A DNA stretch of 64,000 nucleotides from a bacterium (GCA_030427365.1 JAUHWW010000002.1:48-64047), one strand, 5' to 3'; positions 5,241 to 58,198 are shown, numbered from the stretch's first letter. Made by a program: numbers and translations. Notes: a model not told the origin generated them from the sequence alone.

Positions 5241-6308
5241 GTGGGCATATTCTATAAAGACAAACCAGTGTTCGGCCTTGACATCGGTCGAAGCTCAATT
5301 AAGGTCATGCAGTTCAGCCGCACGAATAAGCAGACCCAGGTCACCGCTTACGGCTCTGCTACCTTTGACCCGGCCGCACTCAAAGACGGAGTAATTGTTG
5401 ATCACGAAGCCTTTGTAAAGGCTGCCCATAAGCTACTGCAAGAAGGCCTTATCGGCAATATCACCACTTCACATGTTGCGGTCAGTCTGCCAAACTCACA
5501 TAGCTTTAGCCGCGTTTTGACACTGCCGAAAATGGACGACGCTGATATCGCCAATTCGGTGAAGCTTGAGGTCGATCAGTCTATACCGATGCCGATCGAT
5601 GAGTTGTATTACGATTACAGTGTTGTCCAGGAATCATCTGAGGGAGATCGTGAAGTGCAAGTTGTTGCCTCTCCAAGAGCAATTGTTGACTCGTATTTTG
5701 AAGCGTTCCGTCTGCTTGGACTAGATGTGGCGCTCATTGAGCCAAATATCTCTGCGGTTACTCGCATCGTCATGCATGCGGAAGAACATGCTGTTGCAAC
5801 TCTGATTGTTGATATCGGTTCAACCGCGTGTGATCTAACGGTGTACGACGGACAAGCGGTGCGCGTCACGGGCACTGTTGATTGTTCAAGTGAAAAAATA
5901 ACTGACAACATCGCAAAAGCACTTAGTGTTGACCGAGCAAAAGCACAAAATATCAAAACTCGTTATGGATTAGAGGTAAGTAAAAAGCAGAAAGAAATCG
6001 TAGAAGCGGCTAAACCAGAACTCAATAAACTCGTAAACGAAATTCGGAAAGTGATGCGTTATTTTGCCGACAAAGGTCGCGAAGGCAGTGGCAAACCTAT
6101 CGGTCAGATTATCATCCTCGGTGGTGGTGCAAACTTGCCAGGGCTCAGTACGCATCTGACAGATCGCACGCGCGTGCCTACTCGACTTTGTGCACCCTGG
6201 AATAATGTCGACTTTGGTCGTCTGCAACCACCGCATGAACTTGAAAGCACCCTCTATACAACAGCGAGCGGACTTGGTCTCGTCAACATCAAGGAGCTTG
6301 GCTCATGA
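5241..6308 (+). CDS. pilM: type IV pilus assembly protein PilM (actin-like ATPase fold)
   Basis: 355 aa. FGLDIGRSSIKV N-terminus and IILGGGANLPGL motif, typical of PilM/FtsA-like proteins. GTG start. Confidence 0.85.
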   Translation: MGIFYKDKPVFGLDIGRSSIKVMQFSRTNKQTQVTAYGSATFDPAALKDGVIVDHEAFVKAAHKLLQEGLIGNITTSHVAVSLPNSHSFSRVLTLPKMDDADIANSVKLEVDQSIPMPIDELYYDYSVVQESSEGDREVQVVASPRAIVDSYFEAFRLLGLDVALIEPNISAVTRIVMHAEEHAVATLIVDIGSTACDLTVYDGQAVRVTGTVDCSSEKITDNIAKALSVDRAKAQNIKTRYGLEVSKKQKEIVEAAKPELNKLVNEIRKVMRYFADKGREGSGKPIGQIIILGGGANLPGLSTHLTDRTRVPTRLCAPWNNVDFGRLQPPHELESTLYTTASGLGLVNIKELGS

Positions 6309-12878: not shown

Positions 12879-12951
12879 AGGGCCCACCGGGGGAGTGACC
12901 TAAATAATCTGCGCGCCGAGCAGGACTCGGGCGACAGACTATTTAGCGAAC
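12879..12951 (-). repeat. tRNA-Lys 3'-end duplicate (14 nt) fused to palindromic module Z
   Basis: 12879-12892 is identical to 13024-13037 (the tRNA-Lys acceptor/T-stem 3' strand). 12893-12951 is the reverse complement of 56344-56396, with the same 12-nt inverted termini CTAAATAGTCTG/CAGATTATTTAG. Confidence 0.75.
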
Positions 12952-13020
12952 CGCGGCCCGTGTTCAAAATCTCAAGTGAGATTCTCCAAAATAAAAACTC
13001 CCAAACGGGAGCTCTCATTT

Positions 13021-13096
13021 TGGAGGGCCCACCGGGGCTCGAACCCGGGACACACGGCTTAAAAGGCCGTTGCTCTACCAACTGAGCTATAGGCCC
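13021..13096 (-). tRNA. tRNA-Lys (anticodon UUU), CCA encoded
   Basis: Hand-folded cloverleaf: GGGCCTA/TGGGCCC acceptor, GCTC/GAGC D stem, ACGGC-CTTTTAA-GCCGT anticodon arm, CCGGG-TTCGAGC-CCCGG T arm. 76 nt. Confidence 0.95.
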
Positions 13097-52860: not shown

Positions 52861-52935
52861 CGCGGGGTGGAGCAGCGGCAGCTCGCGTGGCTCATAACCA
52901 CGAGGTCGCAGGTTCGAGTCCTGCCCCCGCTACCA
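52861..52935 (+). tRNA. tRNA-CAU, initiator-like (fMet), CCA encoded
   Basis: 75-nt cloverleaf. C1 is unpaired with position 72, and A11:U24 sits in the D stem (GAGC/GCTC); both are initiator hallmarks. CTCATAA loop, GCAGG-TTCGAGT-CCTGC T arm. Confidence 0.92.
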
Positions 52936-52948
52936 AGTGAAACTTTGG

Positions 52949-52971
52949 AACCATCCTCCGGGATGGTTTTT
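52949..52971 (+). terminator. intrinsic terminator after the tRNA-fMet
   Basis: AACCATCC-TCCG-GGATGGTT followed by TTTTTAAG. Confidence 0.7.
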
Positions 52972-52999
52972 AAGTTTCGCTTAGTTTCGGCGAGCAGTG

Positions 53000-53088
53000 C
53001 TCGAGCCAAAAAGGTTCGCACAACAGTCACAGCCCCCAGCGATAGCGGGCGGCTGGATTGGAGTGGTCACTCTTCCTGCCCCCGCTAC
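53000..53088 (+). repeat. repeat unit A: module Y plus an exact 15-nt copy of the tRNA-fMet 3' end
   Basis: 53000-53019 is identical to 54493-54512 (CTCGAGCCAAAAAGGTTCGC). 53074-53088 is identical to 52919-52933 (TCCTGCCCCCGCTAC). Followed by its own hairpin plus T6 at 53099-53122. Confidence 0.8.
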
Positions 53089-53255
53089 TACGACAAGAGT
53101 CCATCGCAAGATGGGCTTTTTTCGTGTTACTGAGACAGGCTCCAGCTAGCGACCTCGCGAGGTCGGAGGTGAGAAATGCCAGCGGCATTTCGGAAACGAA
53201 TCTTCTCTTGCAAACTTGTTTGCAAAGATGAAGTTCGGGGGTCGCCGAAGGTGAC

Positions 53256-53267
53256 CGAGTCCTGCCC
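53256..53267 (+). repeat. second partial copy of the tRNA-fMet T-arm
   Basis: CGAGTCCTGCCC is identical to 52915-52926. Preceded by a variable-loop-like GAAGGTGAC. Confidence 0.55.
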
Positions 53268-53333
53268 TTCTTCTTGAAGCTTATCTCGCTACTGCTTGTG
53301 AACTGATAAGGATAATGAGAACATACATCCATT

Positions 53334-54362
53334 ATGCAAATGATTGAGTTAAATCCCGAAGTTTCTATTTCACGATTGGGCTTGGGGACGTACCACTTAA
53401 CCGACCGATTGTCTGAGATTGATGCGATTGAAGCATTGCGTGCTGCAGAACACGCAGGAATTACATTAATCGATACTTCTAACAACTACCGTAGTGAAGC
53501 AGTTATTGGGCTCGCGCTGCGAGATGGCGTTTTACACGAAGCCGACACGTTTATCGCGACAAAAGCAGGATTGGCAATTACATGGCCGCAGCATCAAAAG
53601 CTGCGTACACAAGGCAGGACTGCTGACAGCACTCCTGAATACTTACGCTCTAGTGTCGATGGGAGCATTAGTGTACTTGGAGTGAAAGCGCTTGACCTGT
53701 TCCAACTACATGACATCGACGAAACGGTGACTCCTCTCTCGATAGCTTCGACAATGACTGAGCTGGTTGAAAGTGGCAAGGTGCGCCAGTGGGGTGTGAC
53801 GAACTATAGTAAAGAAGCAGTTGATGATCTGCTATCTGCTTGTGACAAGTACGATGCAGTTCGGCCTGCAACGGCGCAACTGCCCCTTGATTTGGTTACT
53901 GGTGTTACGGACGCTGTGCAGATAGCACGCGATGAGGGCATGATTGTACTCGGCAGATCACCGCTTGGGTATGGACTTTTTACGGATTCTGGTATCGATC
54001 AAGCCAGAGACATAATCGAGCAGGCTGATCCAGAAAAGAACATCAAAGACGCACTTTTGATCACATTAGATAAATTAGACGAAATAAGAGACCAAGCACA
54101 CAGCGTCGGAGTTGCTTTTGAAGAACTAGCTCTTGCGTGGGTAATGAGCCACGACCGTACAGCTGTGCTAAACAGCTGCTACTTGCCAGAGTATTTACAG
54201 CGTAGCGTCAGAGCAGAAAGATGGGATGCTCCCCAGGCATTATTTGATACTGCCAATGAACTCCATGAAAATCCATTGTATAGAGAAATGGGCAATCGTC
54301 TTATACGCGTGATGCACAGTACCAGACCGCAGCTGAATCGCTCAGCCCACCCACCGCAGTAA
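53334..54362 (+). CDS. aldo/keto reductase
   Basis: 342 aa. LGLGTY...GITLIDTSNNY...ATK... AKR pattern. Confidence 0.88.
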   Translation: MQMIELNPEVSISRLGLGTYHLTDRLSEIDAIEALRAAEHAGITLIDTSNNYRSEAVIGLALRDGVLHEADTFIATKAGLAITWPQHQKLRTQGRTADSTPEYLRSSVDGSISVLGVKALDLFQLHDIDETVTPLSIASTMTELVESGKVRQWGVTNYSKEAVDDLLSACDKYDAVRPATAQLPLDLVTGVTDAVQIARDEGMIVLGRSPLGYGLFTDSGIDQARDIIEQADPEKNIKDALLITLDKLDEIRDQAHSVGVAFEELALAWVMSHDRTAVLNSCYLPEYLQRSVRAERWDAPQALFDTANELHENPLYREMGNRLIRVMHSTRPQLNRSAHPPQ

Positions 54363-54387
54363 TAATTATTGCGTAGTCTTGCACAAA

Positions 54388-54476
54388 ATAGCACCTATAG
54401 AAGGCAGTCTTATGTATCCCCCAGGGCGAACCCGCTACCAAGAAAACAGACTCAGCAACCTGCTGGGTCTTTTTTC
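54388..54476 (+). pseudogene. degenerate tRNA-CAU-like pseudogene plus a copied terminator (paralog of the 39.3 kb tRNA locus)
   Basis: ATAGCACCTATAGAAGGCAGTCTTATGTA... aligns to the D and anticodon arms of the tRNA at 39363-39439. GCTACCAAGAAAACAGACTCAGCAACCTGCTGGGTCTTTTTT parallels that tRNA's 3' end and terminator (GCTACCAAGAAAAATGACTCACATCTGTGGGTCTTTTTT). Confidence 0.65.
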
Positions 54477-54492
54477 TTTGTCGGAGACTAGA

Positions 54493-54682
54493 CTCGAGCC
54501 AAAAAGGTTCGCTATTCCCCCCGCAAAGCGTTGCTTTACGGACGGGCGGATTACATTCATAGCTCCTGCCACGGTCTTACTTGAAACATGTTTCAAATCA
54601 GCCGTCGCCACATCTCAACTCGGCCAGGGCCGGGTTTCCGATCTTGCAGAATTTCACTGAACTTCCTCACCCCGCTACCAAG
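54493..54682 (+). repeat. repeat unit B: module Y, a perfect 16-bp palindrome, and a tRNA-fMet 3'-end copy
   Basis: 54493-54512 equals 53000-53019. TTGAAACATGTTTCAA lies at 54581-54596. 54663-54682 matches tRNA 52918-52937 at 17 of 20 positions, including CCAAG. Confidence 0.75.
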
Positions 54683-54718
54683 CATAAGCATTTTGAAATC
54701 CGTAAACTGGTGTCATTT

Positions 54719-55516
54719 TTATTGAAGAAATTGATTTGTTGCTTCGGCTACCCAAGCGTATTTATCGGCAACAAAATCAAGAGGCTGGCCGTCACGATAT
54801 AGCTGCTTGTCAACCATCTGATTTGAATCACCGCCTGGCCATATACGCCACGAATCATTATCGATTACATCCGCTACTACAAATCCATTGGGTGTTCTAC
54901 CGCATTCGATTTTCATATCGACCAAAGTTACGTCCTGCTCTGCCCAGGCGGCTTCAATAACTTCAAATGTGGCTACAGAAAGATCGCGTAATTGACTAAT
55001 TTCGTGGTCACGTAGGCCAAACGGAGACTGAACGATATTTTGTTGATCGATAAGTGATGGTTCGTCTATTGGCTGTTTTGGATGGTAACGAAAAACCATG
55101 TCGCAGGAGTAATCTAGATACGGGTCATGATTTTCGTCATCTTTAGCGAACATTTCGAATAAAGGTGGTTCAAATCTGGCTCCTTCTGCCACGCCAGGGT
55201 TTCGTTTTAGGTACGATCCGTATGCTAATCTTCTAGTCACTAATTCAATTGGCACCATGTCTACTCTCAGCGCACGAAACACAACATCGCTTCCAGCTAG
55301 TCGACCTTGATAGTGCGTAGGGATTCCATTTCTTTCCAGTAGTTCAAAGCAGTTAGATGTTGTTTGTGTTGCAAGAGCTGCCTTGCCCTCGATTTGATCA
55401 CGTCTAGCCCCATCACCTGCTGTTATATCATCCTTGCTCTCTATTAGTACCGTTGGTTCTTCTGCATATATTCTTTTTGTTTTGCCTTCAGCAATTACCT
55501 CGCCGGATACTATCAT
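54719..55516 (-). CDS. purC: SAICAR synthetase PurC
   Basis: 265 aa. GKTKRIY N-terminal motif and SAICAR_synt-like layout. Confidence 0.88.
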   Translation of the reverse strand: MIVSGEVIAEGKTKRIYAEEPTVLIESKDDITAGDGARRDQIEGKAALATQTTSNCFELLERNGIPTHYQGRLAGSDVVFRALRVDMVPIELVTRRLAYGSYLKRNPGVAEGARFEPPLFEMFAKDDENHDPYLDYSCDMVFRYHPKQPIDEPSLIDQQNIVQSPFGLRDHEISQLRDLSVATFEVIEAAWAEQDVTLVDMKIECGRTPNGFVVADVIDNDSWRIWPGGDSNQMVDKQLYRDGQPLDFVADKYAWVAEATNQFLQ

Positions 55517-55615
55517 ACTAACTTCCCCATTACATAAATCTAGGATATGCTAGTTATACAAAACAAACAAGTTAAGCAAACTAGTATCAAATGCCTAATC
55601 CTAATGGGAGACACA

Positions 55616-56155
55616 ATGACTAAACAAGCCGAACAAGAGCCAATTGTAGGAGTAATTATGGGTTCTGACTCAGACTTGAAAACCATGAAGCCAGCCTCAG
55701 ATATATTGCACCTGTTTGGTGTGCCGCACGAAGTAAGAGTGAAATCTGCGCATAGAACGCCCGAGATGATGGCAGAATATGGTAGAACTGCATTAGATAG
55801 AGGAATAAAAGTAATAATAGCAGGAGCAGGCGGATCTGCTCACCTGCCTGGCATGGTAGCTTCTGAGACTAGGCTTCCGGTGCTTGGTGTAGCTATCGAA
55901 AGTTCTGCGGATGTTACAAATGCCGCCCTAGGCTCAATGATAAGAATGCCAAAGGGCATTCCACTCGCTACAATGGGCAAAGGTGAAGCGGCTGCGGCAA
56001 ATGCAGGATTAGAGGCAGTTAGAATATTAGCCTTAAGTGACGATCAGTTAGGACAAGCATACGAGAATTACGTCGAGAGGATGGCCGCAGAAGTCATGGC
56101 GAAGGATCAAAGGCTAGTAGAGTTAGGCGTAGATACATACTTGCAGCAAATGTAG
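55616..56155 (+). CDS. purE: AIR carboxylase / N5-CAIR mutase PurE
   Basis: VGVIMGSDSDL, SAHRTP, AGGSAHLPGMVAS motifs. Start at MTKQAEQ behind GGAGA. Confidence 0.93.
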   Translation: MTKQAEQEPIVGVIMGSDSDLKTMKPASDILHLFGVPHEVRVKSAHRTPEMMAEYGRTALDRGIKVIIAGAGGSAHLPGMVASETRLPVLGVAIESSADVTNAALGSMIRMPKGIPLATMGKGEAAAANAGLEAVRILALSDDQLGQAYENYVERMAAEVMAKDQRLVELGVDTYLQQM

Positions 56156-56206
56156 TTCCACTCCCAGCTGCTAGTCCAAGTCATATCTTTTGCAATCCCT
56201 AGAATA

Positions 56207-56301
56207 GCTTTCCATCTGTTAAGCTATTTTGCAGATTAGGTTCCAATCCGATTTCAAACGCGCTACCAAGAATAAAAGCTCAGGATTTATCCTGGGCTTT
56301 T
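56207..56301 (+). repeat. tRNA-pseudogene-like direct repeat C1 with copied terminator
   Basis: 56207-56267 aligns with 58140-58198 at about 48 of 61 columns by hand. A D-arm-like GCTT...AAGC and a T-arm-like GGTTCCAATCC end in CGCTACCAAG. The terminator GCTCAGG-ATTTAT-CCTGGGC-TTTT is homologous to those at 39331-39354 and 54448-54476. Confidence 0.7.
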
Positions 56302-56343
56302 GTTCTTGATGACCGAAGGTCGTGACTCGTACCTTCGCGCAGT

Positions 56344-56429
56344 GTTCGCTAAATAGTCTGTTGCCCGATTCGGCGCACAGATTATTTAGGACACTCGTCC
56401 TCCCACACTTCCAAGCATAAGCTATTTGA
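56344..56429 (+). repeat. palindromic module Z followed by a tRNA 3'-end/trailer-like fragment C2
   Basis: 56344-56396 matches the reverse complement of 12893-12951. 56398-56429 (TCCTCCCACACTTCCAAGCATAAGCTATTTGA) is homologous to 54664-54697. Confidence 0.7.
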
Positions 56430-56493
56430 CCATATAAGCATCTTGATGATGTAGCATCTCATTCAAAAGGGTTGGTGCGGTATACTATTCTTG

Positions 56494-57945
56494 ATGAGCT
56501 ATGACCACAAAGAATTGACTGCCCTAGTCGATGAGCTTAGAAATCTAGGCTCAGAACAAGAGTGGATTGAGTTCAAGAAAGATAATTTCCAGCCAGATGT
56601 AATCGGGCAAGCCATTTCAGCCCTTTCGAACGCTGCAGCATTACACGGTAAGGACAAGGCTTACCTAGTTTATGGCATAAAAGATGACACTCACGAAGTG
56701 ATAGGCACTATATTTGACCTCGCGAAGGAACGCGTTGGAGCCGAGGAGCTTGAAAACTGGCTAAATAAGATGCTCGACCCCAAGATAAACTTTATTTGTC
56801 ATGAGTTTGAGTACGTACCGGGAACTAAAGTTGTAGTGATAGAGATAGATGCCGCCTCATCTTACCCAGTCAGCTTCAAGAAAGCATGTTACATTCGTGT
56901 TGGTAGCTACACGAAACCAATCTCAGCCCACCGTGGAAAAGAAAAAGCACTCTGGAGCAAGCTTGAAAAGAAAACTTTTGAGCTCGAGCTGGCAAAAACA
57001 AACCTCAGCAATGACGAGGTGCTTACACTACTAGATTACAATGAGGCCTTCAAAAAGCTCGGCATTCGCCTGCCAGATGACAAGTCTAGCATTATAGAAA
57101 AACTCATTGAAAATGAACTCGTAACTAAGTCCAAAGGTCGGCTAGCCATTACAAACCTGGGGGCGGTGCTGTTTGCAGTCGATCTGACAAAGTTTGATGG
57201 TTTAGCAAGACGTGCAGTACGTGTAGTCAAGTACGATGGTAAGGACAAGCTCGAGACCGAGCGAGAGTTTCGTGGCAAAAAAGGCTATGCGTTAGGTGTT
57301 GACAATATTGTCAGCCTTATAGCTACAATAACCCCGGCAGAGGAGGTTATGGAAGGTGCTTCACTAATAAAAAAGTTTGCATACCCTCAACGTGCAGTAC
57401 GTGAGCTAGTCGCCAACGCATTAATCCACCAAGACTTTAGCATTGGTGGTGCTGGCCCAATGATAGAAATCTTTGACAACCGAGTTGAAATATCAAACCC
57501 AGGTACGCCACTAGTTGATGTACAAAGAATCATTGACCATAGCCCGAGGAGTAGAAATGAAAAGCTTGCTGGCACAATGGCCAGAATGGGTATTTGTGAA
57601 GAACGTGGCAGTGGTGTAGATAAGGTTGTTATTGAGTGTGAGATGAGCCAGTTACCGGCTCCCGAATTCATCGTTGAAGATGATTTTACACGTACGAAAC
57701 TATTCGCTTATAGAACACTTAGAGACATGACGAGGGAAGATAAAATACGAGCTACCTACTATCATGCTGTAATTAAATACATTACTGATGGTTATATGGA
57801 AAACAATACACTCCGGGAACGTTTCGGTATTGCCAAGGAAAACTATCCCACTGCTTCCAACATTATCAGACTAGCTTTAGACGCAGGTGCCATTAAGACA
57901 CGTGACTCAGATACCGCGACAAAGTACGTGCCGTTTTGGGCGTAA
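56494..57945 (+). CDS. Schlafen/AlbA_2 domain plus HATPase_c_4 plus wHTH protein (COG2865-like)
   Basis: About 483 aa. N-terminal AlbA_2-like EWIEFKKD...YLVYGI. Central RELVANALIHQDF...IEIFDNRVEISNPG. C-terminal HTH-like region. The track ORF starts at TTG 56491. TATACT at 56481-56486 lies 7 nt before the ATG, so the mRNA may be leaderless. Confidence 0.85.
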   Translation: MSYDHKELTALVDELRNLGSEQEWIEFKKDNFQPDVIGQAISALSNAAALHGKDKAYLVYGIKDDTHEVIGTIFDLAKERVGAEELENWLNKMLDPKINFICHEFEYVPGTKVVVIEIDAASSYPVSFKKACYIRVGSYTKPISAHRGKEKALWSKLEKKTFELELAKTNLSNDEVLTLLDYNEAFKKLGIRLPDDKSSIIEKLIENELVTKSKGRLAITNLGAVLFAVDLTKFDGLARRAVRVVKYDGKDKLETEREFRGKKGYALGVDNIVSLIATITPAEEVMEGASLIKKFAYPQRAVRELVANALIHQDFSIGGAGPMIEIFDNRVEISNPGTPLVDVQRIIDHSPRSRNEKLAGTMARMGICEERGSGVDKVVIECEMSQLPAPEFIVEDDFTRTKLFAYRTLRDMTREDKIRATYYHAVIKYITDGYMENNTLRERFGIAKENYPTASNIIRLALDAGAIKTRDSDTATKYVPFWA

Positions 57946-57948
57946 TCC

Positions 57949-58034
57949 ACATGTAATCGAGCATCGGTATTTCGTACAACAACAATTTTTCACCCCTGTA
58001 AAAAATACTTATACACATGTAATCAACATGTAAT
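57949..58034 (+). repeat. three direct copies of ACATGTAAT
   Basis: Copies at 57949-57958, 58015-58024 and 58026-58034, just downstream of the AlbA_2 gene. Confidence 0.6.
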
Positions 58035-58056
58035 TGGAAGAGGATGGGGTTGCTGA

Positions 58057-58136
58057 GACTGGGAGCCTTTACTGAGAGAGCCGGCAGTTCTAGACCCAGC
58101 TGCCTGTCTCTGTTAACTGGGGTACTGCTCCCAGTC
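58057..58136. other. about 80-nt imperfect long hairpin
   Basis: Outer perfect 10-bp stem GACTGGGAGC/GCTCCCAGTC. Inner AGAGA/TCTCT and GGCAG/CTGCC stems. Confidence 0.55.
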
Positions 58137-58139
58137 ACT

Positions 58140-58198
58140 GCTTCCACCTGTTAAGCTCTTTTGCAGATGAGTTGTAGTTCGATTTTAGACGCGCTACC
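58140..58198 (+). repeat. tRNA-pseudogene-like direct repeat D1 (partner of C1)
   Basis: GCTTCCACCTGTTAAGCTCTTTTGCAGATGAGTTGTAGTTCGATTTTAGACGCGCTACC. Its last bases overlap the ftsB-like stop codon. Confidence 0.7.

Follow-up and report, generated by a model that had tools for sequence, protein, structure and literature searches.

The palindromic element that occurs twice in the stretch of DNA analyzed here (the window, 64,000 nt in full) is one sequence variant (CTAAAT/ATTTAG) of a larger conserved hairpin family found in Saccharibacteria. In every copy examined, the hairpin takes the place of A58, between G57 and N59, in a partially copied tRNA 3′ end. We favor the reading, to which we give a probability of about 0.45, that the hairpin and its surroundings form an attachment-site module through which small, integrase-less mobile cassettes recombine at tRNA 3′ ends. 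How genes are gained and lost is poorly understood in Saccharibacteria (TM7), which live as ultra-small epibionts and have genomes of about 1 Mb.

The window carries the housekeeping genes ruvABC, yebC, recA, dnaJ, dus, and hsp20, and the closest named relatives of its YggT and Hsp20 proteins belong to Candidatus Saccharibacteria/Saccharimonadales. A search of the 64 kb for the arm pattern CTAAATAGTCTG-N10-35-CAGATTATTTAG returned two exact matches, Z1 (56349–56389, + strand) and Z2 (12900–12946, − strand), and none in 100 dinucleotide-preserving shuffles of the window. Both copies carry the arms CTAAATAGTCTG/CAGATTATTTAG, which pair over 12 bp with one G-T, and enclose an inner GC stem; in Z1 this stem has a 5′ bulged U, a 3′ bulged C, and the loop ATT, while in Z2 it is longer and carries the loop CCU. 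The predicted hairpin folds reach −22.3 and −29.6 kcal/mol (z −5.2 and −6.5) in Z1 and Z2, respectively. The centers differ by 6 nt (41 versus 47 nt between arm ends), and the base of the GC stem shows a compensatory change, T-A in Z1 versus C-G in Z2. An earlier, sequence-only reading had reported the two occurrences, the identical termini with their 12-bp pairing and single G-T, and the presence at both copies of GTTCG before and (T/A)CACTC plus a tRNA 3′-end-like segment after, all of which were borne out. It was also right that both centers still fold, but what it gave as a 7-nt indel is the 6-nt difference and T-A/C-G change just described; similarly, both sequences that it quoted are correct, but the second (60 nt) is the reverse complement of 12893–12952 and not of 12893–12951.

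Upstream of the Z1 hairpin, the left part of the unit (56260–56343, +) consists of a tRNA-end remnant, GCGCTACCA (56260–56268), a palindromic terminator (56269–56309), and an inverted T-arm remnant forming the hairpin H1 (56310–56343), as seen in a predicted 146-nt fold. The left junction, GTTCG (56344–56348, +), corresponds to T-loop nucleotides 53–57 of the partial tRNA copy and is the point at which homology between alleles is lost. The Z1 tail (56390–56413, +) comprises GACACTC followed by a degenerate copy of tRNA-fMet 59–76 with CCA (GTCCTCCCACACTTCCA; repeat D6), as compared with the tRNA-fMet gene at 52861–52935. Z2 follows an intact tRNA-Lys(UUU) gene (13021–13096, −), the 3′ end of which is repeated after the hairpin. 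The intervening stretch (12953–13020, −; predicted 149-nt fold) holds a palindromic terminator running from the tRNA CCA to TGG (13020–12986), a small hairpin, and GGGCC, similar to the 5′ acceptor of tRNA-Lys, and leads into GGTTCG (12947–12952, −). The Z2 tail (12879–12899, −) comprises GTCACTC and a copy of tRNA-Lys 60–73 (CCCCGGTGGGCCCT), with AAA in place of CCA, abutting the stop codon of the convergent yggT gene. Both hairpins are thus flanked by GTTCG and G(A/T)CACTC, and the similarity between Z1 and Z2 ends at GTTCG on one side and at CACTC on the other (repeats I1 and I2), so the two do not stem from a larger duplication. As Z1 and Z2 lie on opposite strands under a uniform GC skew, the orientation of Z follows that of the tRNA, and replication-strand bias offers no hint of a single-stranded DNA state.

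When one genome per species was scanned, three matches to the arm pattern were true copies, each from a Saccharibacteria-type MAG, and the rest were AT-rich sequences matching by chance. The metagenome scan used the inner core only (AGTCTGYYGCCCG-N3-30-CGGCGCRCAGATT, arms unconstrained) and recovered 44 copies in 43 metagenome contigs. Since copies are numerous in relatives and the two window copies are not one duplication, the outcome that the sequence-only reading had named as reducing the element to simple paralogy did not arise. A covariance model, R1, built from 37 distinct copies gave 50 matches above 50 bits across 46 Saccharibacteria genome and metagenome loci; with this model, Z1 scores 59.9 bits (E 4.7e-14) and Z2 68.5 bits (E 2e-16). 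The hairpin was absent from a 55-kb control of tRNA-free Saccharibacteria DNA. The inner-core pattern also gave no match in viral contigs (IMG/VR), and a phage or viral origin was rejected on this ground. No Rfam relative was found either, with only four tRNAs returned from the window at the gathering thresholds of Rfam 15 and no match over the hairpin in five loci at E ≤ 1, so membership in a known RNA family was likewise rejected.

The layout of the family, from 5′ to 3′, is GGTTCG, a variable 6-nt arm, AGTCTG, a bulged Y, (U/C)GC CCG, a variable loop of 3 to 12 nt, CGG, a bulged C, GC(A/G), CAGATT, the complementary 6-nt arm, and a short tail. The 6-nt arm occurs as CTAAAT, GTCGTT, GTCATT, ATAATG, CATTTC, GTCACG, and others. 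Given that the search pattern fixed the inner core, the invariance of this core in the pattern-selected set carries no weight. In the outer stem, the pairs 9-54, 10-53, 11-52, and 12-51 each show three to four Watson-Crick pair types and zero to three non-pairs across the 37 distinct copies. The covariation score of the outer stem is 0.214, compared with 0.069 in column shuffles (reached in 0 of 500) and at most 0.089 in slid-partner controls. A covariation analysis had been proposed in the sequence-only reading, and its result also qualifies the 12-nt termini by which that reading defined the element; these are identical in Z1 and Z2 but define a single variant, as across the family the outer arms vary and covary while the inner core stays conserved. 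On the tRNA-sense strand, copies score 60–80 bits with R1, versus 14–23 bits on the antisense strand (15.9 bits for Z1 and 17.6 bits for Z2), which makes the tRNA-sense strand the folding one, either in RNA or in ssDNA.

An intact tRNA gene lies on the same strand within 400 nt upstream in 31 of the 49 copies, and nine tRNA identities are represented at the hairpins: Ser, Lys, Pro, Met (initiator), Asn, Arg, Ile, Asp, and Val. The partial copy is usually located 60–110 nt 3′ of the matching intact tRNA, beyond the terminator and the inverted T-arm remnant. In most of the 22 tRNA-adjacent units scored, the 19 nt that follow the insert agree with positions 58–76 of the upstream tRNA, including CCA, at 17–18 positions, with A58 as the mismatch; 5′ of the insert, the match to the tRNA in these units is usually GGTTCG alone. 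Between the tRNA and GGTTCG lie two elements, a near-perfect palindromic terminator, often reaching from the tRNA CCA to TGG, and an inverted, degenerate T-arm copy (..GATTCGAACC..) that pairs with GGTTCG to give H1, which folds better on the tRNA-sense strand in 15 of 22 units (p = 0.003). A complete unit is non-coding, spans 110–190 nt, and comprises the terminator, inverted remnant, GGTTCG, hairpin, tail, and tRNA 59–76 with CCA. The point at which the tRNA-end copy is truncated differs among loci L036, L037, and L053 and the window.

Two other identities for the unit were rejected. A tRNA with a T-loop intron would not lack the 5′ two-thirds of the tRNA before GGTTCG, where the match extends over 6–14 nt and is preceded by an inverted T-arm remnant, and an intact cognate tRNA is present upstream. 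A tmRNA or permuted tmRNA was dismissed because none was found by ARAGORN and several copies per genome occur at different tRNAs. As for the terminators, post-tRNA palindromes that include CCA and a matching TGG (window 12986–13023 and many other loci) are found at 15 of 24 Z-family tRNAs, and also at 10 of 25 other tRNAs, most of which carry other unit types, so these terminators were rejected as a Z-specific feature.

Units of the same design with other structured inserts were found at nine of the 25 bystander tRNAs, and further examples occur in the window (54506–54564 and 53233–53267) and in L071 and L073. The type-2 unit after tRNA-fMet (53013–53088, +) consists of GGTTCG, the hairpin CACAAC AGTCAC AGCCCCC..GGGCGGC TGGATT GGAGTG (53013–53072), the tail GTCACTC, and CCTGCCCCCGCTAC, and scores 14.2 bits with R1. 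Its core, AGTCAC..TGGATT, recurs in the second copy in L038 (3015–3070; 32 bits with R1) and in L070 (about 7655–7600). Type 2, which was not pattern-selected, keeps the AGTC/GATT frame, the G-T pair, the 9 bp to the 3′ bulged C, and the GC stem that follows; judged by eye, it attains the same geometry as Z through different paired bases. Type C occupies the same T-loop position with GGTTCG CTA(A/T)TTCCCC..CGGGCG(A/G)ATTA.. (window 54506–54570; L071 7696–7630; L026 after 3060) and has a 3′ bulged C between its GC and AT stems. A fourth unit type combines a conserved leader, ..TTGTTTGCAAAGA(T/C)GAAGTT(T)CG, with a T-loop insert that is just a 19-nt GC hairpin, followed by the tRNA copy GAGTCC.. 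(window 53165–53267; L073 6330–6215; L053 after 5790). Type B inserts share the motif GCACAGAAGCTTGCTTCGAGCATG (L014 1717–1900, −; L021 about 5560–5600, −; and L037 near tRNA-Gly(GCC)). Given that AGTCAC..GGATT frames the type B insert in L037, this suggests that all of the insert types are related.

Units of the family lie at the junctions of cassettes. In locus L023, the order on the tRNA strand is tRNA-Asn, units U1 and U2, ABC-F and MFS genes, and unit U3, with U2 and U3 as direct repeats around the cargo. One identical unit is found in L021, L036, L038, and L044 with unrelated DNA on both sides; downstream, the four diverge right after CCA or, in L036, inside the acceptor copy. The genes adjacent to units encode accessory enzymes and transporters, including SDRs, an aldo-keto reductase (AKR), a luciferase-like monooxygenase, a histidine phosphatase, VKOR, and DHODH, with further cargo comprising S51 peptidase, CAP, SPFH, ABC-F/MFS, purC/purE, a Schlafen/AlbA_2 protein, and ORFs without a Pfam match. 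In the window, an island at 52861–58140 is headed by the initiator tRNA-fMet (52861–52935), and its modules each end in a copy of ..CTACCA. Its order is a type-2 unit, a short-hairpin pseudo T-arm, the AKR gene, a type-C unit, purC/purE, Z1, the SLFN gene, divIC, and a second tRNA-Met.

We noted conserved stretches at both ends of the cargo cassettes. Right after CCA, cassettes start with a ~45-nt conserved motif, AGCATAAG(C/T)ATTTTGACATCAG..CTGATGTCATTTTT, which forms a terminator-like hairpin (window 54679–54725 and 56414–56450, partly degenerate; L070 5487–5440 and 7487–7440; L028, L030, and L032). They end in a ~110-nt conserved, pseudo-tRNA-like stretch, GGTTCTAGTCC..GGTAGAG-like..CAGATTAGGTTCCAATCCGATTTCAAACGCGCTACCA, that has no hairpin insert (window 56156–56268; upstream of units in L038, L044, and L036; L070 4640–4520). 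The gene directly 3′ of Z1 (56491–57945) encodes a protein with Schlafen/AlbA_2 and HATPase_c_4 domains and is missing from the sister strain. Some members of the Schlafen family are nucleases that cleave tRNA.

Sister strains proved polymorphic in these modules. At the tRNA-Lys gene with unit Z2, the window is 100% identical to the sister strain (137.9-kb ENA contig; contigs L074–L076). In yggT homologues of relatives (65–70% identity), tRNA-Lys is not adjacent. In the fMet island, sister strain L070 has neither the AKR cassette nor the type-C unit, and a 237-aa ORF takes the place of the SLFN cassette. Unit Z1 (56269–56413) is also absent in L070, exactly between ..CTACCA repeats; L070 reads ..GCGCTACCA|AGCATAAG.., and the window reads ..GCGCTACCA, the 145 nt of the unit, and ..CACACTTCCA|AGCATAAG... 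The purC/purE block (window 54673–56275) has CTACCA at both ends and is 97% identical between the window and L070, compared with 88–92% for the flanking core genes, and so purC/purE appear to travel as island cargo. The Saccharibacteria group is usually described as lacking de novo nucleotide synthesis. The left part of the first unit after tRNA-fMet (the terminator plus ..cgcgcagtGTTCG) is common to L070 and L071, where it is followed by a type-2 and a type-C insert, respectively, and the same left part precedes Z1 in the window. Because one left part thus precedes Z, type 2, or type C, homology breaks exactly at GTTCG|. By contrast, the hairpins of L015 (at tRNA-fMet) and L029 (at tRNA-Arg) are identical, including the loop, while their flanks are unrelated.

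In the attachment-site reading, the 18–19-nt tRNA-end copy would be the shared core of the attachment site, and the adjoining hairpin would be a structured arm recognized by a recombinase encoded elsewhere in the genome. Recombination would be site-specific. Recognition would probably take place on the folded tRNA-sense strand, as for integron attC; the hairpin would act as DNA and not as RNA, and the trans-acting enzyme would insert and remove cargo-free mini-units and cargo cassettes alike at tRNA 3′ ends. The position at cassette junctions, the indel bounded by tRNA-end repeats, and the break at GTTCG favor one of the suggestions of the sequence-only reading, that of a recombinase or HUH-enzyme recognition hairpin tied to tRNA-linked cassettes, but no recombinase or RAYT was found to go with it. 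When the ORFs of 100 aa or more from the window and all loci (674 in total) were searched with jackhmmer, no match was obtained with XerC or lambda Int (about 350 kb of flanks) or with RAYT; a tyrosine-recombinase catalytic-motif regex on the ORFs found nothing, and Pfam scans of 70 neighboring ORFs showed no mobility genes. With all of these searches negative, a recombinase encoded in cis was rejected, and, as the XerC, lambda Int, and RAYT queries found nothing near the copies, the enzyme is hypothetical.

This lack of a recombinase among the 674 ORFs counts against the attachment-site reading, as do several further points. Variation in where the tRNA-end copy stops in some units can be explained by decay or homologous recombination just as well as by a fixed crossover, and the identical hairpins in L015 and L029 would require gene conversion or an exchange of the insert alone, neither of which is expected from a simple att model. 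The covariation and the tolerance of G-U pairs suit an RNA equally. The polymorphisms could also come from homologous recombination after natural transformation, with the units serving only as portable homology; such recombination probably contributes to the island differences under any reading, given the contrast between 88% identity in the fMet island flanks and 100% at the tRNA-Lys locus.

The main alternative, that the unit is transcribed and acts as an RNA, is unlikely, although it draws on some of the same data. The transcript would be a tRNA-like minihelix mimic, with an acceptor/T-stem-like closing helix and an NCCA end, in which the hairpin would be a protein-binding arm; it could act as a decoy or regulator, or have a processing or stability function linked to the matching tRNA, with cassette shuffling a by-product of repeat recombination. 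Compensatory covariation, with G-U pairs on the tRNA-sense strand only, agrees with an RNA, and the whole unit, beyond the hairpin, folds better on that strand. The unit is always oriented as the tRNA, has terminators on both sides, and has a 3′ part nearly identical to the cognate tRNA including CCA. Units are also common, counting the other kinds at nine of the 25 bystander tRNAs. However, no sigma-70-like promoter was found between the strong upstream terminator and Z, the CCA is often paired with TGG in predicted folds, and a relative in Rfam is lacking. A role as RNA further leaves unexplained the pseudo-tRNA remnants at cargo ends, the units at cassette boundaries, and the swapping of inserts at an orthologous site.

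We regard as quite improbable that the ~60-nt insert (hairpin and tail) is a selfish REP- or PATE-like ssDNA hairpin, copied into the GGTTCG|A of T-loop-like DNA by an HUH or other transposase acting in trans. Since insertion into a real tRNA would be lethal, such an insert would survive only in dispensable partial tRNA copies. This account would accommodate the invariant insertion point, the insert of L015 and L029 that is identical including its loop in unrelated tRNA contexts and flanks, and the change of insert type at one orthologous site with both flanks unchanged; the imperfect palindrome with conserved bulges and 5′ head is also as in REPs. Nonetheless, no RAYT/Y1 transposase is found near any copy, copies are few per genome region and confined to partial tRNA copies, and beside palindromic terminators we never saw a partial tRNA copy whose T-loop was empty. 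The constant company of partial copy, inverted remnant, and terminator would also go unexplained. Finally, a chance palindrome or paralogy from one segmental duplication has practically nothing in its favor beyond there being just two exact-arm copies in the 64-kb window, and was rejected given 0 chance matches in 100 shuffles, unrelated flanks, and 50 covarying copies in other genomes.

Returning to the attachment-site reading, a broader proposal follows in outline, possible but on balance doubtful: that Saccharibacteria hold an undescribed integron-like cassette-capture system. Its sites would be tRNA 3′-end mimics with a T-loop hairpin (types Z/A1, A2, B, C, and D), real tRNA genes would be the array anchors, and a recombinase encoded elsewhere would shuffle single-gene cassettes (e.g., purC/purE) between strains. 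The prediction would be a trans-acting enzyme that recognizes a structured single strand. The hairpin family marks the junctions of strain-variable cassettes, and R1 provides a sequence handle for such islands in any CPR genome. Should the units prove to be recombination sites, a major uncultivated lineage would possess a cassette system that is integron-like without belonging to the integron family; should they prove to be RNAs, each tRNA species would have its own member of a new class of transcripts that mimic tRNAs.

In terms of kind, hairpins that serve as recombination sites are already known, and so are islands anchored at a tRNA and carrying partial tRNA repeats. The conserved T-loop hairpin in a partial tRNA, found at many tRNA species in Saccharibacteria and delimiting integrase-less mini-cassettes, is not in Rfam, and we found no describing paper in the literature on Saccharibacteria/Patescibacteria. 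Among repeat families, REPs and REPINs resemble the hairpin in being short, imperfect, strand-specific palindromes with a conserved 5′ head and mismatches. REPs, however, comprise hundreds of dispersed, rayT-linked extragenic copies, whereas the Z family occurs only in the T-loop position of partial tRNAs, with no RAYT found; the window holds two strong copies, both tRNA-linked, and the 55-kb control none. In contrast to MITEs, the "termini" of Z are the stem of a single hairpin, and its flanks, GGTTCG and N59–76, are consecutive tRNA positions and not a target-site duplication. Rickettsia RPEs lie in frame within genes, unlike both window copies and the examined locus copies, which are intergenic, either 3′ of a tRNA or between cassettes. 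Membership in the MITE, RPE, or REP classes, with which the sequence-only reading had compared the element, is not supported, as there are no transposon TIRs, no target-site duplication, no dispersal, no copies in ORFs, and no RAYT/Y1 nearby.

CIMEs are decayed ICEs/IMEs of kilobase size, presumably moved by an enzyme supplied in trans. In concept, they are cis-mobilizable, att-flanked segments without an integrase (PMC5704250). Z units are similar to CIMEs as non-autonomous segments between attL/attR-like repeats but differ in being a conserved, structured family of ~150 nt at many different tRNAs. Tycheposons in Prochlorococcus are tRNA-anchored islands in which successive insertions each leave a partial tRNA 3′ end (bioRxiv 10.1101/2020.12.28.424599), and the ssrA islands of Dehalococcoides are tandem integrative islands anchored at tmRNA (PMC3146451). 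Shared with both are the variable island at a tRNA, the full tRNA with partial 3′-end repeats, and the accessory cargo. These islands, however, span several kb and come with replication genes and a tyrosine or serine recombinase of their own, whereas Z modules span 0.1–2 kb. Unlike in tycheposons, all of the scanned cargo in Saccharibacteria consists of enzymes, transporters, and unknown proteins, with no tyrosine recombinase in about 350 kb of flanks, and the partial tRNA of Z units carries a structured T-loop insert; the word "hairpin" is absent from the tycheposon paper (10.1101/2020.12.28.424599).

Another close parallel is the integron attC site, an imperfect hairpin in which structure is conserved more than sequence, with single-nucleotide bulges, a variable tip, and folding of one strand (PMC5027507, PMC3053210). 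The Z-family hairpin is likewise imperfect, with a 5′ bulged Y, a 3′ bulged C, a variable loop, and folding of one strand, and, as in integron arrays, it stands between accessory cassettes that share one orientation, lack an integrase, and mostly hold a single gene. In contrast to integrons, no IntI-type integrase was found beside Z arrays (674 ORFs, XerC and lambda Int queries), and the arrays are anchored at a tRNA gene, where integron arrays are anchored at attI with its Pc promoter. The Z hairpin, unlike attC, is embedded in a tRNA 3′-end copy, and its cassette boundaries are ..CCA repeats. The R″/R′ boxes of attC (RYYYAAC/GTTRRRY) also find no equivalent, as the base of Z reads CTAAAT/ATTTAG or GTCGTT/AACGTG and GTTCGGT/GTTCGCT has C at the first R; an AAC..GTT core, in the flanking CGAACC..GGTTCG, is all that the two have in common. 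By analogy with these systems, the Z unit would thus work like an integron attC site or a tycheposon island, while belonging to neither.
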